A stretch of 64,000 bases of DNA, taken from the sequence record NC_135728.1. The stretch is one strand, 5' to 3'. Position 1 is the stretch's first letter, and every line of letters begins with the position of its first letter. Source of the DNA: a phage. The notes beneath the pieces were generated by a model, which saw only the letters and a list, made by a program, of their open reading frames with translations, was not told the origin of the DNA and made no database searches. Position numbers and translations under genes: made by a program. This document shows, in pieces, positions 1-64,000 of the stretch.

Positions 1-1983
1 TTATTTGGTGTTATTCTTTGCGTCGATCAGTTCACGGTATTCAATCATAGCAGGAGTGTCCCAATATTTCAAGCCCACATGCTTCAAAAGCGGATATTTC
101 TTTTCCAATCTTGCAATATAGGCCTTCCCGCACTTGACTCGGTTAGCGATTAAGATTTTGGCACGATGATTTAGCTCACTGTGCTTCCACGCGGTGTTAC
201 CTTCCCACTTGTGGAAATGTGGCCGATAATTTCCAAAATCTTGCATGGGGATAATTTTCCCTAATTGTCTATACAGGCTGTCATATGAAGTTTCATTTGC
301 TGCGCGAGTCAGTAAGAATTGCCAGGCGTCCTCTTTCAACAAATGTTCCACATTTTTCTCTGTAACATACTGGCAATCAGGATCAGTCCAAAGCAGACGA
401 GATTCTGATACCAGGTACAGATCTTCACCTTTAGGAATCTGGAGTGCCGCACGCACACGGTCATAATTTTGCTGGTAGATGTTACTCAGCTGTCCCAGCC
501 AACAACTTCCACGTTGGATATCACCCTCATAAGGAATGCAATGCTTAATCTTCTTGAACTCTGCCTTAGTAATACGCTCACGACGGAAGTAACCATCCTT
601 CTCAAGTTTTTTAACCCAATAGCCTGGCTCATAACGAGTTTTTGTTTCACCTTTCTTGACAGGTCGGCGAGGGAGCTCTGATAACAATTTGACCGTATCT
701 GCAAAGAACGGGTGGTGTGCCGCTTCTTTAAACTCTTCCACCAGATCCGTGTTCCGGCAATAGAAAACGTTGCGTCCGGTGATCTCGCTTAAGTAGTTAC
801 ACTTATTCCGGTTATATTTGCCGTCTCCGTCGTTAAATACAAGGTATACACCTCGTAAGAACTCCGACTTTCCGTAACGAGCATAGCCTATGCGGCCCTT
901 ATTTAAGCCGCCAGCGAAAATTTCACAATCGCCTAAGTCACCAAGCCCTGTTTCTTCCCAACGGTTCCACATAAAGTTTTTGCCGAAGATGTGTCCGAAC
1001 ACACCACTATTCTTCATCATTTCACGTGCTTCTGCGGAGGTTTTTGCCGTCTCCAGTTCTGCAACAACTTCTGCCCCGCGAAGACGTATACCTTCTTTGA
1101 CAAAGGCCTCCAGGCGATCCTGGAATCCACCGTCGTCATGGCCCTCTATGGTCCATTCACGCCCAGGGTTAATATTGCAATCCCCAATAGGAATTTCCAC
1201 GCAGATTGCAGGGTAATCGGTCAATGTCTCCAGGAACTTAGAGCGGTAAGGTTGGTGACCCATCACAACACGGCTCTCATCAGAACTGGTATAACCTTTC
1301 AGGATGGTCATTTTCCAGCCATCCTTCTCGTAACGATACTGTGCCTCAACCTTGTCACCTTCTAACATCTTACTGGTCATGGGATCGGTGACGGTGAACG
1401 GAAACTTCGCATAGCGTAAGCACGATGCAATAGCAGTGCGATATTTCAGGACATGCTCTTTCTTAACATGGAACTGAACTTTTACCCCGTTGTGCTCTTC
1501 AGTCTTCCGCTCGCGGATCTTGGTAACGTTTGGGATACCCTGATCCAAGAACAATAGATATGTGCTTTCAACACCATTATGCACACTGATCACATCGAAA
1601 GTGTCCACCATGCTGAACGGAGCCTTTGAACCAACACCTTTATTACCTACCAGAGCGTTGCTGTTGCGCTTGGTTGACTCCCCGAGGTTCATGAAAGTGT
1701 TGCGGACCATCTCTTCTGACATGCCCAATCCAACGTCCTGTACAAAGAAGTATGGTTCAAGGTCTGTAGGAGAGTGAATGATGATCGGTACATCACCACG
1801 TCCAGACTCAACATGAGAGTCCACAGCATTGAAGATTGGTTCACGGCAGCTTGCCAGCACCTTATCTTCGTAAATCCCTTTAATGATTAGCCCAAAAGTC
1901 TCTTTGTTCAGAGAAATTGATCCCCTGGTGACCTCCATATTTCCGGTTAGCACTGCTTTAGTTTCATTACTGTTTACAATCAT
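1..1983 (-). CDS. GHKL-type ATPase domain protein, rIIA-like (660 aa)
   Basis: Complete ORF with stop at 1-3. N-terminal Bergerat-fold motifs: N-box REPIFNAVDS, G1 QDVGLGM, G2 GNKGVGSKA. Size and phage context fit rIIA-type proteins; homology not verified. Confidence 0.5.
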   Translation of the reverse strand: MIVNSNETKAVLTGNMEVTRGSISLNKETFGLIIKGIYEDKVLASCREPIFNAVDSHVESGRGDVPIIIHSPTDLEPYFFVQDVGLGMSEEMVRNTFMNLGESTKRNSNALVGNKGVGSKAPFSMVDTFDVISVHNGVESTYLLFLDQGIPNVTKIRERKTEEHNGVKVQFHVKKEHVLKYRTAIASCLRYAKFPFTVTDPMTSKMLEGDKVEAQYRYEKDGWKMTILKGYTSSDESRVVMGHQPYRSKFLETLTDYPAICVEIPIGDCNINPGREWTIEGHDDGGFQDRLEAFVKEGIRLRGAEVVAELETAKTSAEAREMMKNSGVFGHIFGKNFMWNRWEETGLGDLGDCEIFAGGLNKGRIGYARYGKSEFLRGVYLVFNDGDGKYNRNKCNYLSEITGRNVFYCRNTDLVEEFKEAAHHPFFADTVKLLSELPRRPVKKGETKTRYEPGYWVKKLEKDGYFRRERITKAEFKKIKHCIPYEGDIQRGSCWLGQLSNIYQQNYDRVRAALQIPKGEDLYLVSESRLLWTDPDCQYVTEKNVEHLLKEDAWQFLLTRAANETSYDSLYRQLGKIIPMQDFGNYRPHFHKWEGNTAWKHSELNHRAKILIANRVKCGKAYIARLEKKYPLLKHVGLKYWDTPAMIEYRELIDAKNNTK

Positions 1984-2480
1984 TTATTGCGCTCCTTGTA
2001 GTAGATATGGCTCCCGAATTGGGCTGTCCTCTGCATCTTTTTTGCCCATTTCGGTCGTACTTTGGTTGTATGGTAGTGTGTTGCTCCACCTGTTATGTCC
2101 ATAGCCATGTATGCAACATGGTTGTTATTATAGACCTTTAGAAGCATCTTTGCAAGACTTTTAGCGTGATCCCATGAATCTTTTTCTGTCACCTTAAAAG
2201 TTTTGCCGTGGTTTGTCCACGAAAACTGGTTAGGTTGGTAGACAATCTTTCTTATGGTGTCTGGGTATTTGGGGTGAGATTTCCTGTTTAGGGTGGCAAA
2301 CCCAGATGCCAGCATACCCATCGTGCCATCCCCTCTAGCTTCCCTGTAGATATTGCATGCTAGAATGTTTTCCTTAGTATCTGATGGCTTGCAAGTATGG
2401 TATACTTTTTGTTTTGGTGCTGCAACAACAGGCAGCGATAAAAATGCGCTCAAAATAATAGCAAAGATCTTAATTTTCAC
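1980..2480 (-). CDS. secreted cell-wall hydrolase, SleB-like (166 aa)
   Basis: N-terminal signal peptide MKIKIFAIILSAFLSLPVVAAP; NIYREARGDG motif typical of the SleB/cell wall hydrolase family; 4-nt overlap with the downstream gene. Confidence 0.6.
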   Translation of the reverse strand: MKIKIFAIILSAFLSLPVVAAPKQKVYHTCKPSDTKENILACNIYREARGDGTMGMLASGFATLNRKSHPKYPDTIRKIVYQPNQFSWTNHGKTFKVTEKDSWDHAKSLAKMLLKVYNNNHVAYMAMDITGGATHYHTTKVRPKWAKKMQRTAQFGSHIYYKERNK

Positions 2481-9231: not shown

Positions 9232-9495
9232 ATGGCAACAGAGTTAAAATTTGCATCAAACCGTAAAACTAAGAAGTATCTGTCCTCAGTAGCTCCAGGC
9301 ACTGTGGTGATGTTTGTTGATGAACTTGGGGATGTGAATACAGCACTTGTTGTAAAATCACATCCTGCAAACATATATGTTGGGGTATTTGACCTGTTCA
9401 GAAAGGTGTTTGTAGAACTACCTCACAGTTTGGTTGTTACAGAAATGGATGCCTGCATAGAAATTCTTGGCGAAGTTATGGTGGAGGAACAATAA
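9232..9495 (+). CDS. small paralogous protein 1 of 4 (87 aa)
   Basis: Strong RBS GAGAGGAGG; shares G-T-V-V and V-x-E-x-D-x-x-I-x-I-L-G-E pattern with the next ORFs. Confidence 0.55.
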   Translation: MATELKFASNRKTKKYLSSVAPGTVVMFVDELGDVNTALVVKSHPANIYVGVFDLFRKVFVELPHSLVVTEMDACIEILGEVMVEEQ

Positions 9496-9758
9496 TGGCT
9501 ACCAGCATTGTATTCAATTCTAAGGTGAAGAACAAAAAGCGTGCAGACAGCTTTCCGTGTGGGACCGTGGTAAGTTGCGACGGAGACGGCATTCAAAACA
9601 TAGTTATGATTGTCAAAACAGGAGAACATTGTGTGTGGGGGTTCGATTTAGAAAATAATGAGTTGTACGATCTGCCACCAAACATGAAAGTTACAGAGCT
9701 TGACACCAAAATTACCATCCTTGGAGAGACAAGCTATTCAAAAGAAGGAGGAGAATAA
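9495..9758 (+). CDS. small paralogous protein 2 of 4 (87 aa)
   Basis: Same length and motif pattern as 9232-9495; ATGA-type coupling. Confidence 0.55.
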   Translation: MATSIVFNSKVKNKKRADSFPCGTVVSCDGDGIQNIVMIVKTGEHCVWGFDLENNELYDLPPNMKVTELDTKITILGETSYSKEGGE

Positions 9759-10021
9759 TGACCACAAAAATCACTATCGCAGAACCGAAAGCTAACACTC
9801 AACCTATCGAAAAGTTTAAGTGCGGTGAGGTGGTAACATTCACACCAGATAATGAAGATGCTAAGATTTTCGCAATGGTCACAGCTGAGTGGATGTGTGA
9901 CAACACCACACAGGTTCTGCGTTTTGACACCTATCTTACCGATGAAATCAGGAACGACAAGATTGTGACTGGTGTGGATACTGAGATTGTTTTCTACAAG
10001 AGCTTTTTAGAGGGTTTCTGA
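9758..10021 (+). CDS. small paralogous protein 3 of 4 (87 aa)
   Basis: Same length and related pattern (CGEVVTF...). Confidence 0.5.
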   Translation: MTTKITIAEPKANTQPIEKFKCGEVVTFTPDNEDAKIFAMVTAEWMCDNTTQVLRFDTYLTDEIRNDKIVTGVDTEIVFYKSFLEGF

Positions 10022-21179: not shown

Positions 21180-21446
21180 TTAAGCTTTTTGCTCTTCGTT
21201 TTTAACGTGGTCAGGGTGCTGGCAACCCCACCGGAGCGAGATGAATTTGCTAATAAGCTGGGGGCAAGCTACTGAAGGCGCGTATATCCACGCATACCAT
21301 TCAGGAAGCGTATCATTATACCCCATATGAATAAACACCCCAGTCATCACCGCCATGCCTATGTTCGACCATAGCTTAGATTGGGACACTTTCGTAGGGT
21401 CATCAGATGCCGCAACCAGTCCCCATAAAAACTGAGTTAGTTTCAT
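21180..21446 (-). CDS. small membrane protein (88 aa), possible holin
   Basis: Hydrophobic segments WSNIGMAVMTGVFIHMGY and WYAWIYAPSVACPQLI; function is inferred only. Confidence 0.35.
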   Translation of the reverse strand: MKLTQFLWGLVAASDDPTKVSQSKLWSNIGMAVMTGVFIHMGYNDTLPEWYAWIYAPSVACPQLISKFISLRWGCQHPDHVKNEEQKA

Positions 21447-22548: not shown

Positions 22549-22580
22549 AACAAAATGCAAGAACGGAGTCCTTTCCGTTC
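22549..22580 (-). terminator. intrinsic terminator
   Basis: GAACGGA-loop-TCCGTTC hairpin followed by a U-rich run in minus sense. Confidence 0.5.
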
Positions 22581-22590
22581 TGACCTTTGT

Positions 22591-22905
22591 TTACCTTTTA
22601 CTATGCTCTACGAGCATGTGCAAAATCTTTTGTACATCAGCTCGGATGCCGGAGACATCTGTCCTGACATCCTGCTTAAGGTCGTTAATATCGGCCTCTA
22701 GCTTGCTTAACCGAGTCTCGATAACGGAATCAAGTCTATCTTTTGTAACCATACTGTTTTTCACTAAGATGAGGTCTTTCTCCAGCTCATCCAACCTCTT
22801 GGAAATGCCTTTCCATTTGGTGTGCCACTGGTTGAAAGCCCATACACAGATCGGGACAACGGTACCCATGCAGATACCGTACAATGCCGCCAAATCCAAC
22901 TCCAC
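22591..22905 (-). CDS. membrane-anchored coiled-coil protein (104 aa)
   Basis: N-terminal hydrophobic segment followed by heptad-rich region. Confidence 0.4.
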   Translation of the reverse strand: MELDLAALYGICMGTVVPICVWAFNQWHTKWKGISKRLDELEKDLILVKNSMVTKDRLDSVIETRLSKLEADINDLKQDVRTDVSGIRADVQKILHMLVEHSKR

Positions 22906-22916
22906 AACACCTCCTC

Positions 22917-23501
22917 TTAGAGGGTAGGTCGCTCCGGGAAGAAAATGTCAGGGGCTTTAGATGTATCTATTTCAAGAAGTTTTACCCTGTACATTTTCAA
23001 ATCTCTGATGTTACGTTTCTGGTCATCAGTAAGATCATATTCAAGGTCAATCATGTCTTGATAGGCACCAATTCTAGCAGTAGCCCAAGCAAGTTCTGTC
23101 TCTATGACACCCTCTGCCTGTTGAACAAAGAATTCATTGTCTGTGACAAATCCATCACCAACTAAACGCAAAGCGTCGTGGTGAAGCGTAATGTTTTCTG
23201 GTACCTCTTCTTTTTTGGCGATAACCACACGGAGACCTGGAGCAGGCCATAAGGCATCAGGTTCTTCTGTAGATGTCTTAAGAATTCCCTTCTCGTCAAC
23301 AAGCAGGAAGATACAACCTGGATTTTCTTGTCGTAATGTTCGTGACTGCACATACCAATCGCCATCATCATTACGTAAAAAATACCCGGTGTATGCGGTG
23401 TAATCCTCAACCTCTTGAGGGGTCAGCTCTTTGGTTTCCTTGTTGGCGTGGTATTCGCCAGATCCCGGTTGGTAAAGTTTAAACTCTTGAAGTATTTTCA
23501 T
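22917..23501 (-). CDS. tail fibre assembly chaperone (Tfa-like, 194 aa)
   Basis: C-terminal motif YRVKLLEIDTSKAPDIFFPERP typical of tail fibre assembly proteins; immediately downstream of a fibre gene. Confidence 0.55.
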   Translation of the reverse strand: MKILQEFKLYQPGSGEYHANKETKELTPQEVEDYTAYTGYFLRNDDGDWYVQSRTLRQENPGCIFLLVDEKGILKTSTEEPDALWPAPGLRVVIAKKEEVPENITLHHDALRLVGDGFVTDNEFFVQQAEGVIETELAWATARIGAYQDMIDLEYDLTDDQKRNIRDLKMYRVKLLEIDTSKAPDIFFPERPTL

Positions 23502-31900: not shown

Positions 31901-32534
31901 CAGGACATTTAAGGTACGTTCTTAAATAGTCCAGGATCACCAAGGCTGCGTTATTGGTGTACACCTCTTTACTGATGCGAGGATCATAGCATTTTTTACC
32001 AACCTTGACGAGTGTAACGTTTGGCAACCCAAAAGGAAACTTGTTAGGGTCAAACTTGAAACTGGCACGTAGCCAACTGATCCCTCTACCTATCATGTCG
32101 GGTGACCATGATGGGCAGTGTGTACCCATGAAAGGATCAGATGTTTTTCTGTCGTTATGTAGCTCCCACGATACCAGATCTCCATACGAGGAAATAGGAT
32201 TACCGTCGATGAGTATGTCTTCTATACCTTCCAGAGGATGATTAGCAAGAACAATGGCACAATGGAGGGTTCTGTCTCTGTCCTGCTCCAAAAACGCAAG
32301 CAGCCCAGACGTGCGTGTCTTCCCATACACTACAGAGCAGGGTGCAGCAGAAGATCTGAGAAGCTTTTGTCTATCTTGCTGACTTCTGTAAGATTTGTTG
32401 CCCTCAAAAATCTTATCCAGAGTTCTGGTGGTAACAGTGTTCAGGCTGTCAGCCAGAGCTGCCTTGGATGCGTTCCAGTCATAACTTGAAGATCTTGCAG
32501 AAGCAACGATGTTATCAATCATTGCAATTGGCAT
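28935..32534 (-). CDS. central tail fibre/host-specificity protein, lambda J-like (1199 aa)
   Basis: Architecture and local sequence reminiscent of lambda gpJ (e.g. KIYYWYIRTTNAFGSSAFME versus lambda DYYFYIRSVNTVGKSAFVE, recalled from memory); coiled-coil repeats; C-terminal receptor region. Confidence 0.65.
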   Translation of the reverse strand: MPIAMIDNIVASARSSSYDWNASKAALADSLNTVTTRTLDKIFEGNKSYRSQQDRQKLLRSSAAPCSVVYGKTRTSGLLAFLEQDRDRTLHCAIVLANHPLEGIEDILIDGNPISSYGDLVSWELHNDRKTSDPFMGTHCPSWSPDMIGRGISWLRASFKFDPNKFPFGLPNVTLVKVGKKCYDPRISKEVYTNNAALVILDYLRTYLKCPDETINWESFREAANICDEAVKNADGTSERRYTINGEFDMDEAPASIMAEMLKACGADLSYVAGKYGLLVGAYYGPATMTLSEDCVCGEVKIYPEASFDKRSNTITGRFTSPTKGYSETDFPSVFVPEWIEKDGERKIIDIDYRFVTSPYQAQRVSAIFLRRARAGRIIEVTCNMRGFKFKPGRYVTMDLPSIGIVGQEMRVLEWEFTKKGGVKVKLRQDAKEWNDATGQLPDSGDVDIPISPSGVAQPQNFRYSVLQAGEVTHGVLAWDNVGTYAQNIVQVRKNGEIVWTAQTVEQFVRVEGLTKGSYTATVVATSYKGGVSPEAYCEFNIQAPEAPVSVEVKQGYFAITLIPHSRDLASVSTQYDFWTSGMTRLPDTSDVTVTSKATRMGVGSTWTSEGLQNDKIYYWYIRTTNAFGSSAFMECAAHCYTSIEDLMPQIDAEFKKTETYKELTANLDNAVKEMDKNVGAVNDRVTSIFEELGDTIEGVVRETTEKFTGVNGEISALNSKLVAAQQSFDDKLAAESGRLGSLIETTNRSTVDLVNRKTQALSEQITATQGTLREELKNTESKLNSSIQETNKATTDLLNKTTEAIKQDLVAATGKITKLEDDVQKEVANLQASIQETNSTTVDLVNNTATAIRQELTSAKQEIVDEMGNIDELRATVSNTSKAVTTLEGKIDAQWGAKIQVDSHGNKYVAGIQLGMEGSGGQVQSYFMVSANNFAVYNPGNGTATLAFAIKNNQAFLKDAFIENGTISSAKIAQEISSNNYDGNGYHQYGWYINKNGHAQFMDVWVKGNINASSGNFTGAVNATSGTFRGDVYANNGSFRGTIDATGGTFRGRVEASVIRANQFEGAIVAHRTYGDCAPVYNSQQRVCRWRWRYVDNVSGQGKNVTFFFKLNGTLASSQLNVWIAGHQILAGKKYGNDNNGMCAVGITGLGEQTIDIVVEIYTPWSTSSVTGVAISCPTVVVSRSNSSFQGPWNESHD

Positions 32535-32971
32535 TAATACCTCCAGACATCAACAACGATAGAATCTTTCATGTCGAACATAAAGACCCCTTTATCACCT
32601 TTCGCCCAAATCTGGTTGTTCCAGAACACACCAGCGGTGAGCCCGTTCAGACCTTCGAAAATGACAATATCTCCACGCTGAACCTGTTTAGGAGTATCCA
32701 GCCGAGTCATAAAGAGATCAAAAATAGTAGGCAGGTGTGTGGTTTTGAAACGGAGCATGCACCATCTTTTGCTTTCCAACTCTGTTTTATACGTTCCTTC
32801 GAAGTTAGAAAGAAAATCTGTTCCGTACTGGGCATCAACACACTTAGCTGCAAAGGTGCAACAATCGTGGAATCCCCATTCAAAAGGTATGGTGGCCTCT
32901 TCGTCAAACACTTTCCACAATCTTTCTTGCCAATCCACTAAACGAGGGTGTGTGCTCATTAAACCTCCCAA
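32534..32971 (-). CDS. tail-associated protein, possible NlpC/P60-like peptidase (145 aa)
   Basis: HDCCTF Cys-containing motif; position immediately upstream of the J-like gene as for lambda gpK. Confidence 0.4.
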   Translation of the reverse strand: MGGLMSTHPRLVDWQERLWKVFDEEATIPFEWGFHDCCTFAAKCVDAQYGTDFLSNFEGTYKTELESKRWCMLRFKTTHLPTIFDLFMTRLDTPKQVQRGDIVIFEGLNGLTAGVFWNNQIWAKGDKGVFMFDMKDSIVVDVWRY

Positions 32972-33525
32972 ATGATCGGGCGGCTCGCCACCTGATCCAC
33001 ATATTTAAAAAATCTGTCATTATCGTTTCTTGAGCTGTGGCTTTCCTCCGTGTACCTATAAGGAAAACCTCTTAACCAACTGTTGAAGATGGAAGAGATG
33101 GATATGGACAAAGCACTATTCTCACCTGTCTGAATAGCCATATCTGTTATAAGGCCGTCAAACAAGCCATTAGTTGTAACAGGCAGACCATTCTCCATAG
33201 CGGTAATGTACAACGTGGCACGACAACCAGAATACTCCGTCTTCAGCAGATCACCAACATACTTAGGATCAAACCCGTTCAATGTTGCTACCACAGATCC
33301 GAAGTTGGTGGCATCTTTCTCAGACACAGCAGTTAATGTTGCTGATCCACCTATCCCTATAAAATGTTGCCCCTCAATTACTACAACACCAGTGCCTGAG
33401 CACACCCTGACAGTTCCTGTCGGTAGCTCCAGCTTTGCAGCAATTAAGATCTCAACACCATCAAGCTCCAGCTTTTCAAGAAATAAATTATCTAATGGCG
33501 CTCTGATCATCTTAGAAATCCTCAA
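32959..33525 (-). CDS. minor tail protein (188 aa)
   Basis: Overlapping start/stop with neighbours; positional call. Confidence 0.4.
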   Translation of the reverse strand: MRISKMIRAPLDNLFLEKLELDGVEILIAAKLELPTGTVRVCSGTGVVVIEGQHFIGIGGSATLTAVSEKDATNFGSVVATLNGFDPKYVGDLLKTEYSGCRATLYITAMENGLPVTTNGLFDGLITDMAIQTGENSALSISISSIFNSWLRGFPYRYTEESHSSRNDNDRFFKYVDQVASRPIIWEV

Positions 33526-58878: not shown

Positions 58879-58948
58879 AAGCTTTACCCCTCAAAACAGT
58901 ATAACAAAATAGCCCTCGTGTTAGAGGGCTAGTATCTCCGATTAATCT

Positions 58949-58977
58949 ATTCTACCACATCTAATTAAGATTGGCAA
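58949..58977 (-). promoter_or_regulatory. sigma70-like promoter (TTGCCA-17-TAGAAT) upstream of portal
   Basis: Hexamers with 17-bp spacer; a hairpin plus U-run (58901-58925) lies in the predicted leader. Confidence 0.4.
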
Positions 58978-58980
58978 CAC

Positions 58981-60069
58981 TTAGATAAAACGCTTGAACA
59001 TAGAAGGTGATGAGATTGATGGAATCACACAAGGAAGTGCTACCTCCTCTTTCTCCAGGAAATTAATTGCAGAAGCTACACAGTCAGCCCAGTCGTCTTT
59101 TCTGTTAAATGTTGATCTTTCCCCGTTGAATTTTTCAAGTTCGGTCAGAAATGCTTCCAGAGTATCAGGATGGAAACTGGATTTTACAATCCTCACCATC
59201 CCTTGTTGGGCAAGATTGGCAAAAGGTGAGAACCTTGTCAGTTTAGACTTGTTGGAAGGCATTGGGTCTTCTTCAACCCTGAACCCTTCTGCGAGCAAGG
59301 ATCTGGATGAGGTTAAGAACTCACTCTTACCTGCCTGACCAGGGTCCACAGAGAATACGATTATGCAATCATCACCATCAAACTGCGCCTGTTTCCTGAT
59401 GATCACATCTCGTTCACCAGCCTTTTTACAGAACTTGCCTTCCAGACCTGTGGAATACCTCCCGTCATCCACGTTTTCAGGACAATAATCCCCTGACAGG
59501 TAATAAAAGCCGTCGCTATCTTTACTTACCTTAATACTGGCAGTAAAGTCAGGAAATTTATTGCCAGAAGTTCTCTCGGTTCCTGCCTTATCCCATGCCC
59601 TGCAAGATACTGATCCAAGGGGTACTCTATCGGCATCACGAAGGAAAGATCTTTGAAAATAGTTTGCACCCTCAGGCTTTGCAAACCAGTTACCATGGAG
59701 AAGCTGAGCTTTTTCCAGCTCTGGTAGACCTTCGAGGAAAGCAAGGTATTCTGGGTTGTCTCTCAAACAGACAGGATTATCAAATATTGTTGCGCCTATG
59801 AACGAGAATGACAACGGTCTTGGCTTGATCTCTACACCCAGTCCGTTAACCGTGGTGTATTTCTCTATCAACTCTTCCTTAGAGTCTCCCCAAATAAATT
59901 CACCGTCGCGTCGGATAAAATATCTTTTCTTACCACATTTCTCCGGATCTGGATACCCTTCATCGTCCAACCACCATCTAACCAGTTTGGCAAGCATGTG
60001 TTCTGAATCAGGGTTACAGCTGATAACCATCCTTGATGGATACTTTGACTGAGATCGCAGACGAGACAT
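58981..60069 (-). CDS. terminase large subunit, exon 2 (nuclease domain); 5' boundary approximate
   Basis: Continues the ATPase exon after the intron; Asp/Glu-rich RNase-H-like C-terminal region; the real 3' splice site lies within about 50 nt upstream of the ATG at 60069. Confidence 0.7.
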   Translation of the reverse strand: MSRLRSQSKYPSRMVISCNPDSEHMLAKLVRWWLDDEGYPDPEKCGKKRYFIRRDGEFIWGDSKEELIEKYTTVNGLGVEIKPRPLSFSFIGATIFDNPVCLRDNPEYLAFLEGLPELEKAQLLHGNWFAKPEGANYFQRSFLRDADRVPLGSVSCRAWDKAGTERTSGNKFPDFTASIKVSKDSDGFYYLSGDYCPENVDDGRYSTGLEGKFCKKAGERDVIIRKQAQFDGDDCIIVFSVDPGQAGKSEFLTSSRSLLAEGFRVEEDPMPSNKSKLTRFSPFANLAQQGMVRIVKSSFHPDTLEAFLTELEKFNGERSTFNRKDDWADCVASAINFLEKEEVALPCVIPSISSPSMFKRFI

Positions 60070-60418
60070 CAGATAGTCTATCTGCTCCCATTCAAATTGT
60101 GTCGTTTATGTTCGGGCAAGGTCGCTAGTCTTGCCCCGCCATTTTCAGGCAGCTGCATGTCTCCATGCAGACCAGACTATATCTTATAAGCGACAACAAC
60201 CGCTTACCCTCCCGTTTCGAATCGCTTGATTCTACGTCTCTCGACTAGTCGTTGAACGTTCATCCTCTCGGATGCTTCGCTGCGGATTATCTAAATTAAC
60301 ACACTGTTACCCTACCTTCGATCTCTCTTCGAAGCCTCTATCATGTTACCATGACAGGTTGGTGGTGTCAATAATAAAGATTTCCCCGCAATTAGGGAGG
60401 TTTTACGAGAGCTGCAAA
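60070..60418 (-). ncRNA. group I self-splicing intron (ORF-less) in the terminase large subunit gene
   Basis: In mRNA sense, conserved core elements in canonical order: P AAUUGCGGGGAAA (60393-60381), Q AAUCCGCAGC (60288-60279), R GUUCAACGACUAGUC (60257-60243), S AAGAUAUAGUCU (60185-60174); in-frame TAA right after the exon-1 GGU. Confidence 0.8.
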
Positions 60419-60847
60419 TTAACCCTCATCGAAGCAAACCATGGTGTACTCAAGCCCCTGATGGTTAAGCTTATCTTGTACATACTCCATGTGGCAGTAT
60501 TTTACAACAGCTCCCTTTTTGCTTCTATCCCACTTACCAGTGTTCGGATCAAACCGTGGAAAAATGAACTTATGATCCTTCTCTCTGAACTTTGGCTTAA
60601 TGTTTTCAGGCAGATCACTATAAATAGCTACTGCTTTAGGCCATAGTCCACCCTCACCTTCCAACTGTGGGGTTGTTCTTCGGAACATAACCACAGAGCT
60701 GTGGGGGTCATCAATAATTTTAAGTGGCATCAACTGCAAGAGGAACGACTTGCCAGACCCTGCGGCACCTCCGATTACCAAAATATCTGCATCGTTTTCT
60801 AGGATCATCTTCTGCTTTTCAGAACACGGTCCGTAAATCTTAGACAT
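60419..60847 (-). CDS. terminase large subunit, exon 1 (ATPase domain)
   Basis: Walker A GGAAGSGKS and Walker B MVCFDEG; ORF ends ...GAU GAG GGU UAA at 60422/60419, with the stop probably intronic. Confidence 0.75.
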   Translation of the reverse strand: MSKIYGPCSEKQKMILENDADILVIGGAAGSGKSFLLQLMPLKIIDDPHSSVVMFRRTTPQLEGEGGLWPKAVAIYSDLPENIKPKFREKDHKFIFPRFDPNTGKWDRSKKGAVVKYCHMEYVQDKLNHQGLEYTMVCFDEG

Positions 60848-61134
60848 TAACCTCTCTCCTTTGGAAACAGTGTTCTAATATAGTCTTGCAAAATGATCAA
60901 TTTAGCTCTATCATTACTACAAGACAGATTATTATCCCTCATAATGCCAGAATTCACCGCATCTGGCGCACCTTTCTTCAAAGGCATAGCTCTAGCAGGT
61001 GGTTTCATGGCACCTTCTGGGGGTTTAACAATCAACCTTCCTACATCTGGAGTGTCAATCCTATATTCTCTCTCAACGCTGGTTGCACACCCACATAATA
61101 ACAAGCACACAATAAACAGTGTAGCAACTCTCAT
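60847..61134 (-). CDS. o-spanin-like outer-membrane lipoprotein (95 aa)
   Basis: Lipoprotein signal with lipobox LLLCGC; Pro-rich; immediately follows the i-spanin-like gene. Confidence 0.5.
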   Translation of the reverse strand: MRVATLFIVCLLLCGCATSVEREYRIDTPDVGRLIVKPPEGAMKPPARAMPLKKGAPDAVNSGIMRDNNLSCSNDRAKLIILQDYIRTLFPKERG

Positions 61135-61529
61135 CGATCCTCCTGATTGATACTCTCATTATAAATATCTATAAGCTGATCAGGGAGTGTTGACTTCTTA
61201 CCTTCAGGTGATTGGAGGTAGATAGTCTGCTTTTCTCTACCTGCCCTCTCAGCTATATTTAATTTATCCTGCAGATCAGAAAGAGATTTTTCAAGGTTTT
61301 TAACCTCCTCTGCGTGGCCCATTTTAATTTTGTCGGCCTGCTTTTGTTGCTGATCAAGGATCCGTTCCCACTTTAACTCTGTTGCTGACACACCCTCTTG
61401 GTAGGCATCATTAAGCTTAGAGTTAAACCAATACACGGCCCCAAGATAAGCTGTACCTATAGCCGCTGCAAAAACTAAACCTTTTATGATCCCTCTATAC
61501 CTACTAAGCCATGTTAAACCTGAAATCAT
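61131..61529 (-). CDS. i-spanin-like protein (132 aa)
   Basis: N-terminal transmembrane segment (GLVFAAAIGTAYLGAVYWF) followed by a coiled-coil-rich periplasmic region; overlaps the o-spanin gene start. Confidence 0.5.
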   Translation of the reverse strand: MISGLTWLSRYRGIIKGLVFAAAIGTAYLGAVYWFNSKLNDAYQEGVSATELKWERILDQQQKQADKIKMGHAEEVKNLEKSLSDLQDKLNIAERAGREKQTIYLQSPEGKKSTLPDQLIDIYNESINQEDR

Positions 61530-61634
61530 TTTAAGGCTCCAGAAACGAAAAAACCCCGCAGCTATACAGCTAACGGGGCGGGTTAAAATTGAGTAACCTA
61601 AATAGATCGAAACTAACTAAAAGGAGACTAATAC

Positions 61635-61904
61635 TTATCGAGGCACTCGGTGGATGATTCTAACAGTAACTGCATTTTCATTCATCAAGTATGCATCTAC
61701 ATCTCTGTAAATATAAAACTTCTGCTCACTATCAACAACACAAGCTACCGCCCCTTCAGAGTTGTCTTCAAAAAAGACCACCACTGCATCGCAGCTGAGT
61801 TCATGATATGACTCTCGAAGATTTACAGCCAGAGGATTGAAATCGTCACGAAAATCTACAGTATTGGTTGGATTTACACGCTCTACAATTTTAAGTGTAT
61901 ACAT
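61635..61904 (-). CDS. hypothetical protein (89 aa)
   Basis: ORF between the tRNA cluster and the spanins. Confidence 0.4.
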   Translation of the reverse strand: MYTLKIVERVNPTNTVDFRDDFNPLAVNLRESYHELSCDAVVVFFEDNSEGAVACVVDSEQKFYIYRDVDAYLMNENAVTVRIIHRVPR

Positions 61905-61950
61905 TTTAAAGGTTCCTTTCGTTTGTATATGTTTAAAGTATAACTAAAGG

Positions 61951-62027
61951 TGGTCTCCACGGAGTGATTCGAACACTCGACCTCCTGATCCCAAATCAGG
62001 CGCTCTACCAAGCTGAGCTACGCGGAG
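61951..62027 (-). tRNA. tRNA-Pro (anticodon UGG), CCA encoded
   Basis: Manual cloverleaf: acceptor CUCCGCG/CGUGGAG (C1-G72), D-arm GCUC/GAGC, anticodon loop UUUGGGA, T-loop UUCGAAU. Confidence 0.8.
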
Positions 62028-62195: not shown

Positions 62196-62294
62196 GGTGC
62201 TAGGCGGTGGAATCGAACCACCTATGTATTCAACGACTACCTCGTCTATTTTCAGGATTAAAAATCCTCGCCCTTGCCAAAGGGCTTACCTAGC
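62196..62294 (-). ncRNA. atypical tRNA-like element (~99 nt), possible disrupted tRNA-Lys(UUU) or stable tRNA-like RNA
   Basis: Canonical T-arm GGUGG-UUCGAUU-CCACC and acceptor GCUAGGU/GCCUAGC, but ~30 nt of extra sequence between the anticodon-like hairpin (AGGA-UUUUUAA-UCCU) and the T-arm; no encoded CCA. Confidence 0.4.
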
Positions 62295-62860: not shown

Positions 62861-63199
62861 TTAGCTATTGCTAACAGGCTGTATTTCTGTAGTAAATGGC
62901 ATAAAAGGTGCTGGTTTTTCAGCCTCTTCTACTACCACCTCTTCCTCTTCACCAAACATCTCATCATATTCTTCCTGCATTCGGTCTGCCTTATCAAGAA
63001 CATACTCTGCAATGCTTTGACGAATATTTTGTTTGGTTTTCGGGTCCAACATCAGCTCTCTTAAAACTTTGTGAGCTTCTGGAACCATCGCTATGAAAGA
63101 TTCCTTCATATCAAGGATGTTCTTCTCTAGCTGAATGGCGTTGGACTCCTCTTTCAGAGGTCTGCCTCTACGGCGACGCTTTTTAGTTGTATCCGCCAT
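62861..63199 (-). CDS. small basic protein (112 aa), possible DNA-binding protein or terminase small subunit
   Basis: Start moved to the ATG at 63199 (MADTTKKRRRRGRP) with GGAGGAAAC RBS; Arg/Lys-rich N-terminus and acidic C-terminus; function speculative. Confidence 0.4.
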   Translation of the reverse strand: MADTTKKRRRRGRPLKEESNAIQLEKNILDMKESFIAMVPEAHKVLRELMLDPKTKQNIRQSIAEYVLDKADRMQEEYDEMFGEEEEVVVEEAEKPAPFMPFTTEIQPVSNS

Positions 63200-63545
63200 G
63201 TTTCCTCCATTATCACGTGATAGGTGGATTTTATCATAGCAAATACTGATTGTCAAGTTCGCCGCAGGGTGGTATTCCCTGCGACTTGTCCAGCGTCCTG
63301 GACCAGCAAGACCCAACAAGTGGGTTACCAGAGGCCTATTACCCGCGCTTCGGCCCGACCTTGTTACAGGTTGGCTGGGGTCACATCGTCATGTGCTGGC
63401 TGCCCCTACCATTTTAAGTGTGGTGCACTATCAAGCCCTCTGAGGGGAACTCAGCTTTCTCCGAACCCTGTTTCAAAGCATCCGGAGATAAAGCCATCAA
63501 ATTCATCTTTAAATTGGATATTCATCATGATACACGAAAACAACC

Positions 63546-63864: not shown

Positions 63865-64000
63865 TCAACAGATTCCGGCCTTATCCTTCCTGTCTGCGTA
63901 TTCTTTAATCGCAACCTCATCTGCATTAGTGACCAGGTCTTCAAAGTAACTCTCAAGCTCCTCATCAATGTCAGGAGACCAGCTCTTTTTCCTGTCAGTG
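63865..64000 (-). CDS. hypothetical protein, C-terminal fragment (gene continues beyond the window)
   Basis: Open minus frame from the window edge to a TGA at 63865-63867 (...EYADRKDKAGIC*). Confidence 0.3.
   Translation of the reverse strand, partial: TDRKKSWSPDIDEELESYFEDLVTNADEVAIKEYADRKDKAGIC

Follow-up and report, generated by a model that had tools for sequence, protein, structure and literature searches.

The gene pair and its products

The DNA examined here is a stretch of 64,000 nucleotides (nt) of phage record NC_135728.1 (the window hereafter, taken at its full length), and our subject is a pair of minus-strand genes that lies beside the terminase gene near one end of it. The first gene of the pair, at 61131-61529(-), starts with ATG and encodes a protein of 132 amino acids (aa); the second, at 60847-61134(-), also starts with ATG and encodes a protein of 95 aa. 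An initial annotation, made from the letters of the sequence and a list of its open reading frames (ORFs), had described the two as an i-spanin and an o-spanin gene overlapping by 4 nt, and both reading frames and their overlap are present at exactly these coordinates in the ORF list and in the raw sequence. The overlap is the tetranucleotide ATGA (61131-61134), in which the i-spanin gene's TGA stop codon (61133-61131) shares nucleotides with the ATG of the o-spanin gene (61134-61132). A ribosome-binding site for the second gene, AGGAGG (61139-61144(-)), is contained in the 3' end of the first, 6 nt upstream of the o-spanin start, and is identical to the Shine-Dalgarno sequence given for the rv5 o-spanin family (Kongari supplement, PMC6139136). 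The i-spanin gene has its own ribosome-binding site, GGAG (61537-61540(-)), which we read from the sequence 7 nt ahead of the ATG. The claim that the pair lies directly upstream of the gene for the large terminase subunit (TerL) proved accurate to the nucleotide, as the o-spanin stop codon and the TerL start codon overlap in the motif TAATG. The i-spanin, o-spanin and TerL genes are predicted to constitute a single tightly coupled translational block, and the coupling of both spanin genes to TerL suggests that their products would be made late, alongside the packaging and head proteins.

The 95-aa protein begins with the lipoprotein signal that had been attributed to it. The sequence reads MRVATLFIVCLLLCG up to the predicted cleavage site and CATS after it, with a basic n-region, an uncharged h-region and the lipobox L-C-G-C. 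The signal peptide comprises residues 1-15, and Cys16 (codon 61087-61089) is the predicted lipidation site. With Ala and not Asp at position +2, the protein is predicted to be sorted to the outer membrane, where it would sit in the inner leaflet. The mature product has 80 aa, with eight Pro residues and one further Cys (C72). When all 1,775 combinations of ORF and start codon in the 64-kb window were passed through a loose lipoprotein-signal filter (at least 40 aa, six frames), three passed; two of these are shadow ORFs within larger genes, and the 95-aa gene is the only free-standing one. Given that so few combinations pass and that two of them are shadow ORFs, the membrane and lipoprotein pattern of the pair is not expected to have arisen by chance. 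The protein matches phrog_1267, labelled ‘Rz-like spanin’ (7e-22). We aligned eight sequences: the window protein, five database clusters and two distant o-spanins given in the Kongari supplement (PMC6139136), those of phage 7-11 and Cronobacter phage CR3, with 25-26% identity. Cys16 is the same in all eight, even at 25% identity, and Cys14 varies. A region near the C-terminus, NN...(K/R)L..LQ.(Y/W)(I/V), is conserved in the same alignment, and every aligned homologue has one or more Cys residues in its mature part, in a column that is not always shared.

In the 132-aa protein, the membrane anchor proposed in the initial annotation is also recovered: there is one hydrophobic helix, at residues 13-35, with R10, R12 and K16 on its N-terminal side. 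Based on hydropathy and the positive-inside argument, the protein is predicted to be type II (N-in/C-out), with the anchor encoded at approximately 61425-61493. The C-terminal 97 residues are hydrophilic, rich in K, E, Q and L, and entirely free of Cys. An AlphaFold model, which was used for secondary structure alone because of its mean pLDDT of only 46 and shallow alignment, places helices at residues 12-45, 50-105 and 117-131. The best heptad register has hydrophobic residues at 75% of its a/d positions over 28 residues; for the rV5 i-spanin, which is 98% identical, a coiled coil at 53-104 and no periplasmic Cys are listed (Kongari supplement, PMC6139136). The 132-aa protein matches phrog_4297, another ‘Rz-like spanin’ profile (3e-48), and, more weakly, three further spanin PHROGs (phrog_8821, 6197 and 1152). 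Of the periplasmic Cys residues of which a spanin is expected to have at least one, the o-spanin contributes C72 and the i-spanin none. Based on these features, judged by the spanin criteria of Summer 2007 and Kongari 2018, we conclude with high confidence that the pair is a two-component spanin of an rV5-like (Vequintavirus) coliphage.

Relatives of the pair and transposon insertions in Bas54

A megablast search with positions 58900-62000 returned 140 phage records, 107 of which span most of the query. All of the close ones are Vequintavirus, a genus of rV5-like myoviruses with genomes of ~137 kb, and the best match is Escherichia phage vB_EcoM-Pr121LW (Pr121LW; 98.7%). The window, which is ~98% identical to Pr121LW, has its approximate counterpart in the opening 64 kb of the rV5 and Mangalyan genomes as deposited. 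It starts inside rIIA; the fibre, baseplate, tail and head modules come next, and after them the terminase, the spanins and a tRNA cluster.

The spanin pair is already known: the spanin database contains it, and so does the GenBank annotation of some hundred near-identical phages. A survey from the Young laboratory, Kongari et al., 2018 (PMC6139136; SpaninDB), named an ‘rv5’ family of i-spanins and one of o-spanins; its supplement gives the rV5 pair as ‘sep’ with a spacing of -4 at coordinates 61155-61554 and 60871-61159, and the rV5 o-spanin as a 15-residue signal ending in LLCG followed by an 80-residue mature protein (PMC6139136). Each of these listed features is reproduced in the window pair. 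The RefSeq label for the rV5 proteins, gp68 and gp67, is ‘Rz-like spanin’; the Mangalyan orthologues are annotated as I-spanin and O-spanin by the Center for Phage Technology, and Pr121LW, the BASEL phages and others likewise carry spanin annotation. The separation of the pair from the endolysin has been in print since 2013-2020. A pair beside the terminase and apart from any lysis cassette, with the stop of Rz overlapping the start of Rz1 as in T4, was described by Buttimer et al., 2020 (PMC7344957), and spanins that adjoin the terminase have also been reported in SP6 and VP4 (PMC7344957).

Homologues of the o-spanin are present in 191 phage records (tblastn), where they are widely annotated as o-spanin; the recorded hosts include Escherichia, Klebsiella, Salmonella, Cronobacter, Erwinia, Proteus and others. 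A search of the protein database returned close relatives only, in five clusters for the o-spanin and eight for the i-spanin. In Proteus phage Mydo and Erwinia phage pEp_SNUABM_01 (Mydovirus, Henunavirus), o-spanin identity to the window protein falls to just 36-39%, and the order of genes is kept: tRNA cluster, one gene, i-spanin, o-spanin with the 4-nt overlap, terminase and portal. Since this order has been retained across genera at such low identity, we infer that the arrangement is old within the subfamily.

Among the records that these searches returned are ~16-21 unannotated entries named ‘Campylobacter phage’ (MG0656xx, for example MG065655.1), with Campylobacter jejuni given as host. 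They are ~98-100% identical to E. coli rV5-like phages and are matched by window positions 58900-62000, by 22560-22930 and by other segments. Judging from these identities, the attribution to a Campylobacter host looks doubtful.

Insertion data are available for a close relative. Bas54 (phage MaxBurger) went through a transposon screen described in the HIDEN-SEQ preprint (10.1101/2025.11.20.689424), in which each gene was scored by the number of TA sites hit over the number of TA sites available. The Bas54 i-spanin gene (bas54_0001; product 95.5% identical to that of the window) was hit at 0 of 29 TA sites and the o-spanin gene (bas54_0002; 96.8%) at 0 of 19, and both are classed as Essential. 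For T4, the same screen found pseT.3 to be essential and pseT.2 to have a strong fitness defect (10.1101/2025.11.20.689424).

Endolysin, holin candidates and neighboring features

The neighbors of the spanin pair are a gene for an 89-aa protein without assigned function, the tRNA cluster and the terminase gene; genes for a holin or an endolysin do not adjoin it, so that the pair lies outside any classic lysis cassette. That the lysis genes are dispersed, as they are in T4 and as the initial annotation supposed, has been published for rV5 and its relatives (PMC6139136, PMC7344957, PMC3606486). Its further statement that a SleB-like protein at 1980-2480 is the only candidate cell-wall hydrolase is wrong, and is an artefact of the 64-kb window: the relatives encode a lambda-R-like endolysin past the window's end (Pr121LW 32965-33435; Mangalyan 71883-72353; rV5 gp89, PMC3606486). 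The gene is found in every close relative examined, ~8 kb past position 64000, on the opposite strand, after a DNA ligase gene and ~10 kb from the spanins, and the window ends before its expected site. The encoded protein has 156 aa and no hydrophobic N-terminus, matches the endolysin profile phrog_90 (3e-56) and is annotated as a member of glycoside hydrolase family 24; on reading its sequence, we take it to be closely similar to lambda R. In Bas54 this endolysin gene (bas54_0202) was hit at 0 of 24 TA sites and is classed as Essential, and the neighboring genes on both sides of it were freely hit.

The assignment of the protein at 1980-2480(-) as SleB-like is itself well founded. It matches Pfam Hydrolase_2 (2e-19), NCBIfam spore_SleB (1e-12) and phrog_938, and has a signal-like N-terminal helix, from which it is predicted to be secreted. 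Signal-peptide-bearing SleB-like hydrolases are conserved across the whole subfamily Vequintavirinae (PMC7344957). The gene overlaps rIIA (1-1983) by 4 nt and is translationally coupled to it. The main endolysin is a different protein from this SleB-like hydrolase, which is dispensable in near-identical Bas54: there, the orthologue (bas54_0065; 99.4% identical) took insertions at 32 of 36 TA sites and is classed as Non-essential. Within the window there is, moreover, another protein with a hydrolase annotation, which again contradicts the claim of a sole candidate. This DUF6950 protein (32534-32971(-); Pfam 3e-33) belongs to the tail (baseplate/fibre) module; relatives have it annotated as ‘CHAP’ or ‘cell wall hydrolase’. 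On K-12 the Bas54 orthologue is dispensable (10.1101/2025.11.20.689424); in one comparison of K-12 with a clinical isolate, insertions in it, as in the adjacent fibre genes, were strongly depleted.

The initial annotation had also mentioned a small membrane protein of the fibre module as its only holin candidate, a remark limited by the window, as the published holin candidates lie outside it. Both of these published candidates are dispensable in Bas54: the BASEL ‘putative holin’ (bas54_0115) was hit at 27 of 28 TA sites and the rV5 gp129-type protein (bas54_0164) at 17 of 19, each being classed as Non-essential, and the identities of both genes were confirmed by comparison with Mangalyan. The LL12 and Gotham genome announcements report that a holin could not be identified. 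Because the endolysin has no signal sequence and is essential, some membrane-permeabilising protein should be essential too, and because both published candidates are dispensable, proteins of the fibre module are still candidate holins. A 104-aa protein (22591-22905(-)), encoded just after the tail-fibre chaperone gene, has a membrane helix at its N-terminus followed by a coiled-coil tail; its Bas54 counterpart (bas54_0037; 99.0% identical) is essential, with 1 of 20 TA sites hit, and no record annotates a homologue as a holin. An 88-aa membrane protein (21180-21446(-)), encoded between tail-fibre genes, is probably the candidate that the initial annotation had in mind. It matches phrog_1322, ‘membrane protein’ (3e-32), and its Bas54 counterpart (bas54_0039; 98.9%) is essential, with 0 of 19 TA sites hit; its homologues, in 373 phage records, always adjoin fibre or spike genes and are never annotated as holins. 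The placement of these two candidates mirrors that of the T4 holin gene t, which lies where the fibre cluster ends, behind fibre-assembly gene 38.

It is nonetheless rather unlikely, in our estimate, that the rV5-type holin is one of these two candidates. The products of 22591-22905 and 21180-21446 may be fibre-assembly or virion proteins, and their essential scores may stem from polarity on essential fibre genes downstream. A third protein, bas54_0110, of 117 aa, single-pass with an N-terminal helix and located outside the window, is also essential, and bas54_0115 and bas54_0164 could be redundant holins. Two other genes were considered as lysis partners and rejected: the gene upstream of the i-spanin (61635-61904), whose product has no membrane segment, and a small gene after the endolysin of the relatives (68 aa, N-terminal hydrophobic; bas54_0201), which is dispensable.

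Between the tRNA/gp69-like unit and the spanin-terminase block sits a terminator-like hairpin (61548-61579(-)). Its stem, G+C-rich and 11 bp long, contains one bulge; the loop is GUAU, and a U run follows. The hairpin's 3' end is 19 nt upstream of the i-spanin ATG, and the surrounding segment (61525-61600(-)) folds with an energy of -22 kcal/mol (z = -2.2). The hairpin is absent from the rV5 annotation and from the output of a simple terminator scan, which missed it because of the bulge; the relatives, which are too similar to one another, yield no covariation. The spanin-terminase block is either reached by read-through or transcribed from a promoter upstream of, or within, this predicted hairpin.

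On the other side of the pair, the TerL gene is split by a group I intron. Exon 1 (60422-60847(-)) matches a terminase PHROG (5e-76) and Pfam Terminase_6N, the intron occupies 60103-60421(-), with its boundaries set by analogy with the Bas54 annotation, and exon 2 follows at 58981-60102(-). The intron is detected by Rfam RF00028 at 60153-60457(-), with 79.4 bits against a gathering score of 50. Splicing would give a continuous TerL of 515 aa that is identical to that of Bas54 and collinear with the intron-less TerL of Mydo. The intron in the window has no homing-endonuclease gene, and in rV5 (HNH), Bas54 and other relatives an endonuclease gene lies in or near it. TerL introns of the rV5-like group have already been reported (rV5 and LL12 papers).

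Several other observations were made along the window. The ORF at 62861-63319(-), which lies a short way upstream of both the tRNA cluster and the spanin-terminase block, has its probable true start at ~63199 (beginning MADTTKKRRRRGRP); its small product matches phrog_3330 and is very basic at the N-terminus and acidic at the C-terminus. Since a small terminase is not annotated in this phage group, this product could be considered a candidate for it. In the tRNA cluster, a 99-nt tRNA-like gene (62196-62294(-)) is returned by ARAGORN as undetermined in type, with a 4-base anticodon, and scores 31 bits with the Rfam tRNA model, just above threshold; it is annotated as tRNA-Lys in Mangalyan and carries no annotation in rV5 or Pr121LW. 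Possible readings are an insertion-bearing tRNA and a pseudogene. Finally, three consecutive 87-aa ORFs (9232-10021(+)), abutting or overlapping by 1 base, are diverged paralogues, the second and third having 38% and 18% identity to the first. Tandem Repeats Finder reported no tandem DNA repeat there, and Mangalyan annotates two of the three.

Alternative readings, proposed mechanism and known counterparts

Several points weigh against assigning the pair as a spanin. Neither protein has any Pfam, NCBIfam or PDB sequence match, which is normal for spanins, a highly diverse class. The PHROG spanin labels are partly circular, because they derive largely from annotations within the same phage group, and the AlphaFold model of the i-spanin is of low confidence. 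The o-spanin lipobox has an unusual Cys at position -2, a residue that the lipobox rule of the Kongari survey permits (PMC6139136). The lack of insertions in the Bas54 spanin genes could be due in part to polarity on the terminase: as the TerL start lies in the o-spanin stop codon, a local polar contribution is possible, and the authors of the screen argued that polar effects are not widespread (10.1101/2025.11.20.689424). Lastly, our literature search found no direct test of outer-membrane disruption, lipidation or complementation of lambda Rz/Rz1 for the rv5 family.

The position of the pair invites the thought that it is a packaging accessory, for example a small terminase subunit and its partner. 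In favor of this, annotations of these phages lack a small terminase, the pair is coupled in translation to TerL and takes no insertions in Bas54, and small terminases, too, typically have a coiled-coil core. A small terminase is soluble and binds DNA, whereas the proteins here have a strong membrane helix and a lipoprotein signal with an invariant Cys, and we rejected the identification on these membrane signals. The weak matches to spanin profiles of other phage groups and the terminase-adjacent spanins of SP6 and VP4 (PMC7344957) argue in the same direction, leaving a role in packaging with a negligible probability. The membrane signals would be accommodated if the pair were instead an envelope-modifying or superinfection-exclusion system (compare T4 Imm/Sp and Cor-type lipoproteins), as exclusion is often served by small phage lipoproteins and single-pass membrane proteins, and no lysis phenotype is on record for the rv5 spanin family. 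Exclusion genes, however, are normally dispensable, early and poorly conserved, and this pair takes no Bas54 insertions, is coupled to late packaging genes, and keeps its order and 4-nt overlap across genera. In addition, no alternative spanin candidate is annotated in any relative examined. We regard an exclusion function as very improbable.

A different question is whether the SleB-like hydrolase at 1980-2480 is the phage lysin that acts with the spanins, its export by the Sec pathway making a holin unneeded. The true cell-wall hydrolase domain, the predicted signal peptide and conservation throughout the Vequintavirinae are consistent with this, and the CR3 homologue has been linked to lysis and that of CB7 is toxic on expression (PMC7344957). 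The insertion data point the other way, in that the 99.4% identical Bas54 gene is dispensable (32/36) and the lambda-R-like endolysin gene takes no insertions (0/24) while its flanking genes are freely hit. Furthermore, the SleB-like gene is in the rIIA operon, among dispensable genes and not among late ones. We consider it improbable that this hydrolase is the lysin in question.

For the two-component spanin, which we favor, a mechanism can be proposed by analogy with lambda and T4 (PMC6139136, PMC5295617, PMC10865782). The signals in the sequence themselves anchor the 132-aa protein in the inner membrane by its N-terminal helix, with the probably helical 97-residue tail extending into the periplasm, and predict that the 95-aa protein is cleaved before Cys16 and delivered to the outer membrane's inner leaflet. 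The C-terminal parts of the two proteins would then bind to each other, giving complexes that span the periplasm by passing through openings in the cell-wall mesh. As the i-spanin is devoid of Cys, the covalent dimer that spanins generally need would be possible only through C72 of the o-spanin. The complexes should remain inert until the endolysin, which is encoded elsewhere, degrades the peptidoglycan; their subsequent collapse would fuse the inner and outer membranes as the final step of lysis.

As a spanin of textbook type, the pair has little import beyond its correct annotation. The by-products of the analysis are corrections: the real endolysin lies beyond the window, and the SleB-like hydrolase and both proposed holins are dispensable in Bas54. 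The route by which the endolysin crosses the inner membrane is now a testable question in this therapeutically used phage group.

The closest known counterpart is the rV5 pair. Over their full length, rV5 gp68 and gp67 are 97.7% and 95.8% identical to the window proteins, with equal lengths (132 and 95 aa) and few, conservative substitutions. The two pairs share the ‘sep, -4’ architecture, the cleavage site between LLCG and C, the Shine-Dalgarno sequence and the place upstream of an intron-split terminase. The terminase genes themselves differ, that of rV5 having three exons and an HNH gene and that of the window one intron without an HNH homing endonuclease.

T4 PseT.3/PseT.2, a ‘separated’ spanin pair that has been studied by experiment, resembles the window pair in having the i-spanin first, a 4-nt start/stop overlap and no linkage to the endolysin and holin genes (PMC6139136). 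Sizes are similar as well (117 and 83 aa in T4, 132 and 95 aa here), whereas the sequences fall into separate families in the Kongari clustering (PMC6139136). T4 requires two o-spanin Cys residues (PMC6139136), whereas the o-spanin of the window has one in its periplasmic part, and the T4 genes are found among early and middle genes, whereas those of the window stand at the head of the terminase block.

With lambda Rz/Rz1, the window pair shares its logic, a type II protein of the inner membrane with a periplasmic coiled coil (predicted, in the case of the window) combined with a small, Pro-rich lipoprotein of the outer membrane, and presumably also its mechanism, membrane fusion after removal of the cell wall. 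The two pairs have no detectable sequence similarity (no Pfam match). Whereas lambda Rz has two periplasmic Cys residues, the i-spanin of the window has none, and whereas Rz1 is embedded in another frame of Rz within a holin-endolysin-spanin cassette, the genes of the window follow one another in sequence and belong to no cassette.

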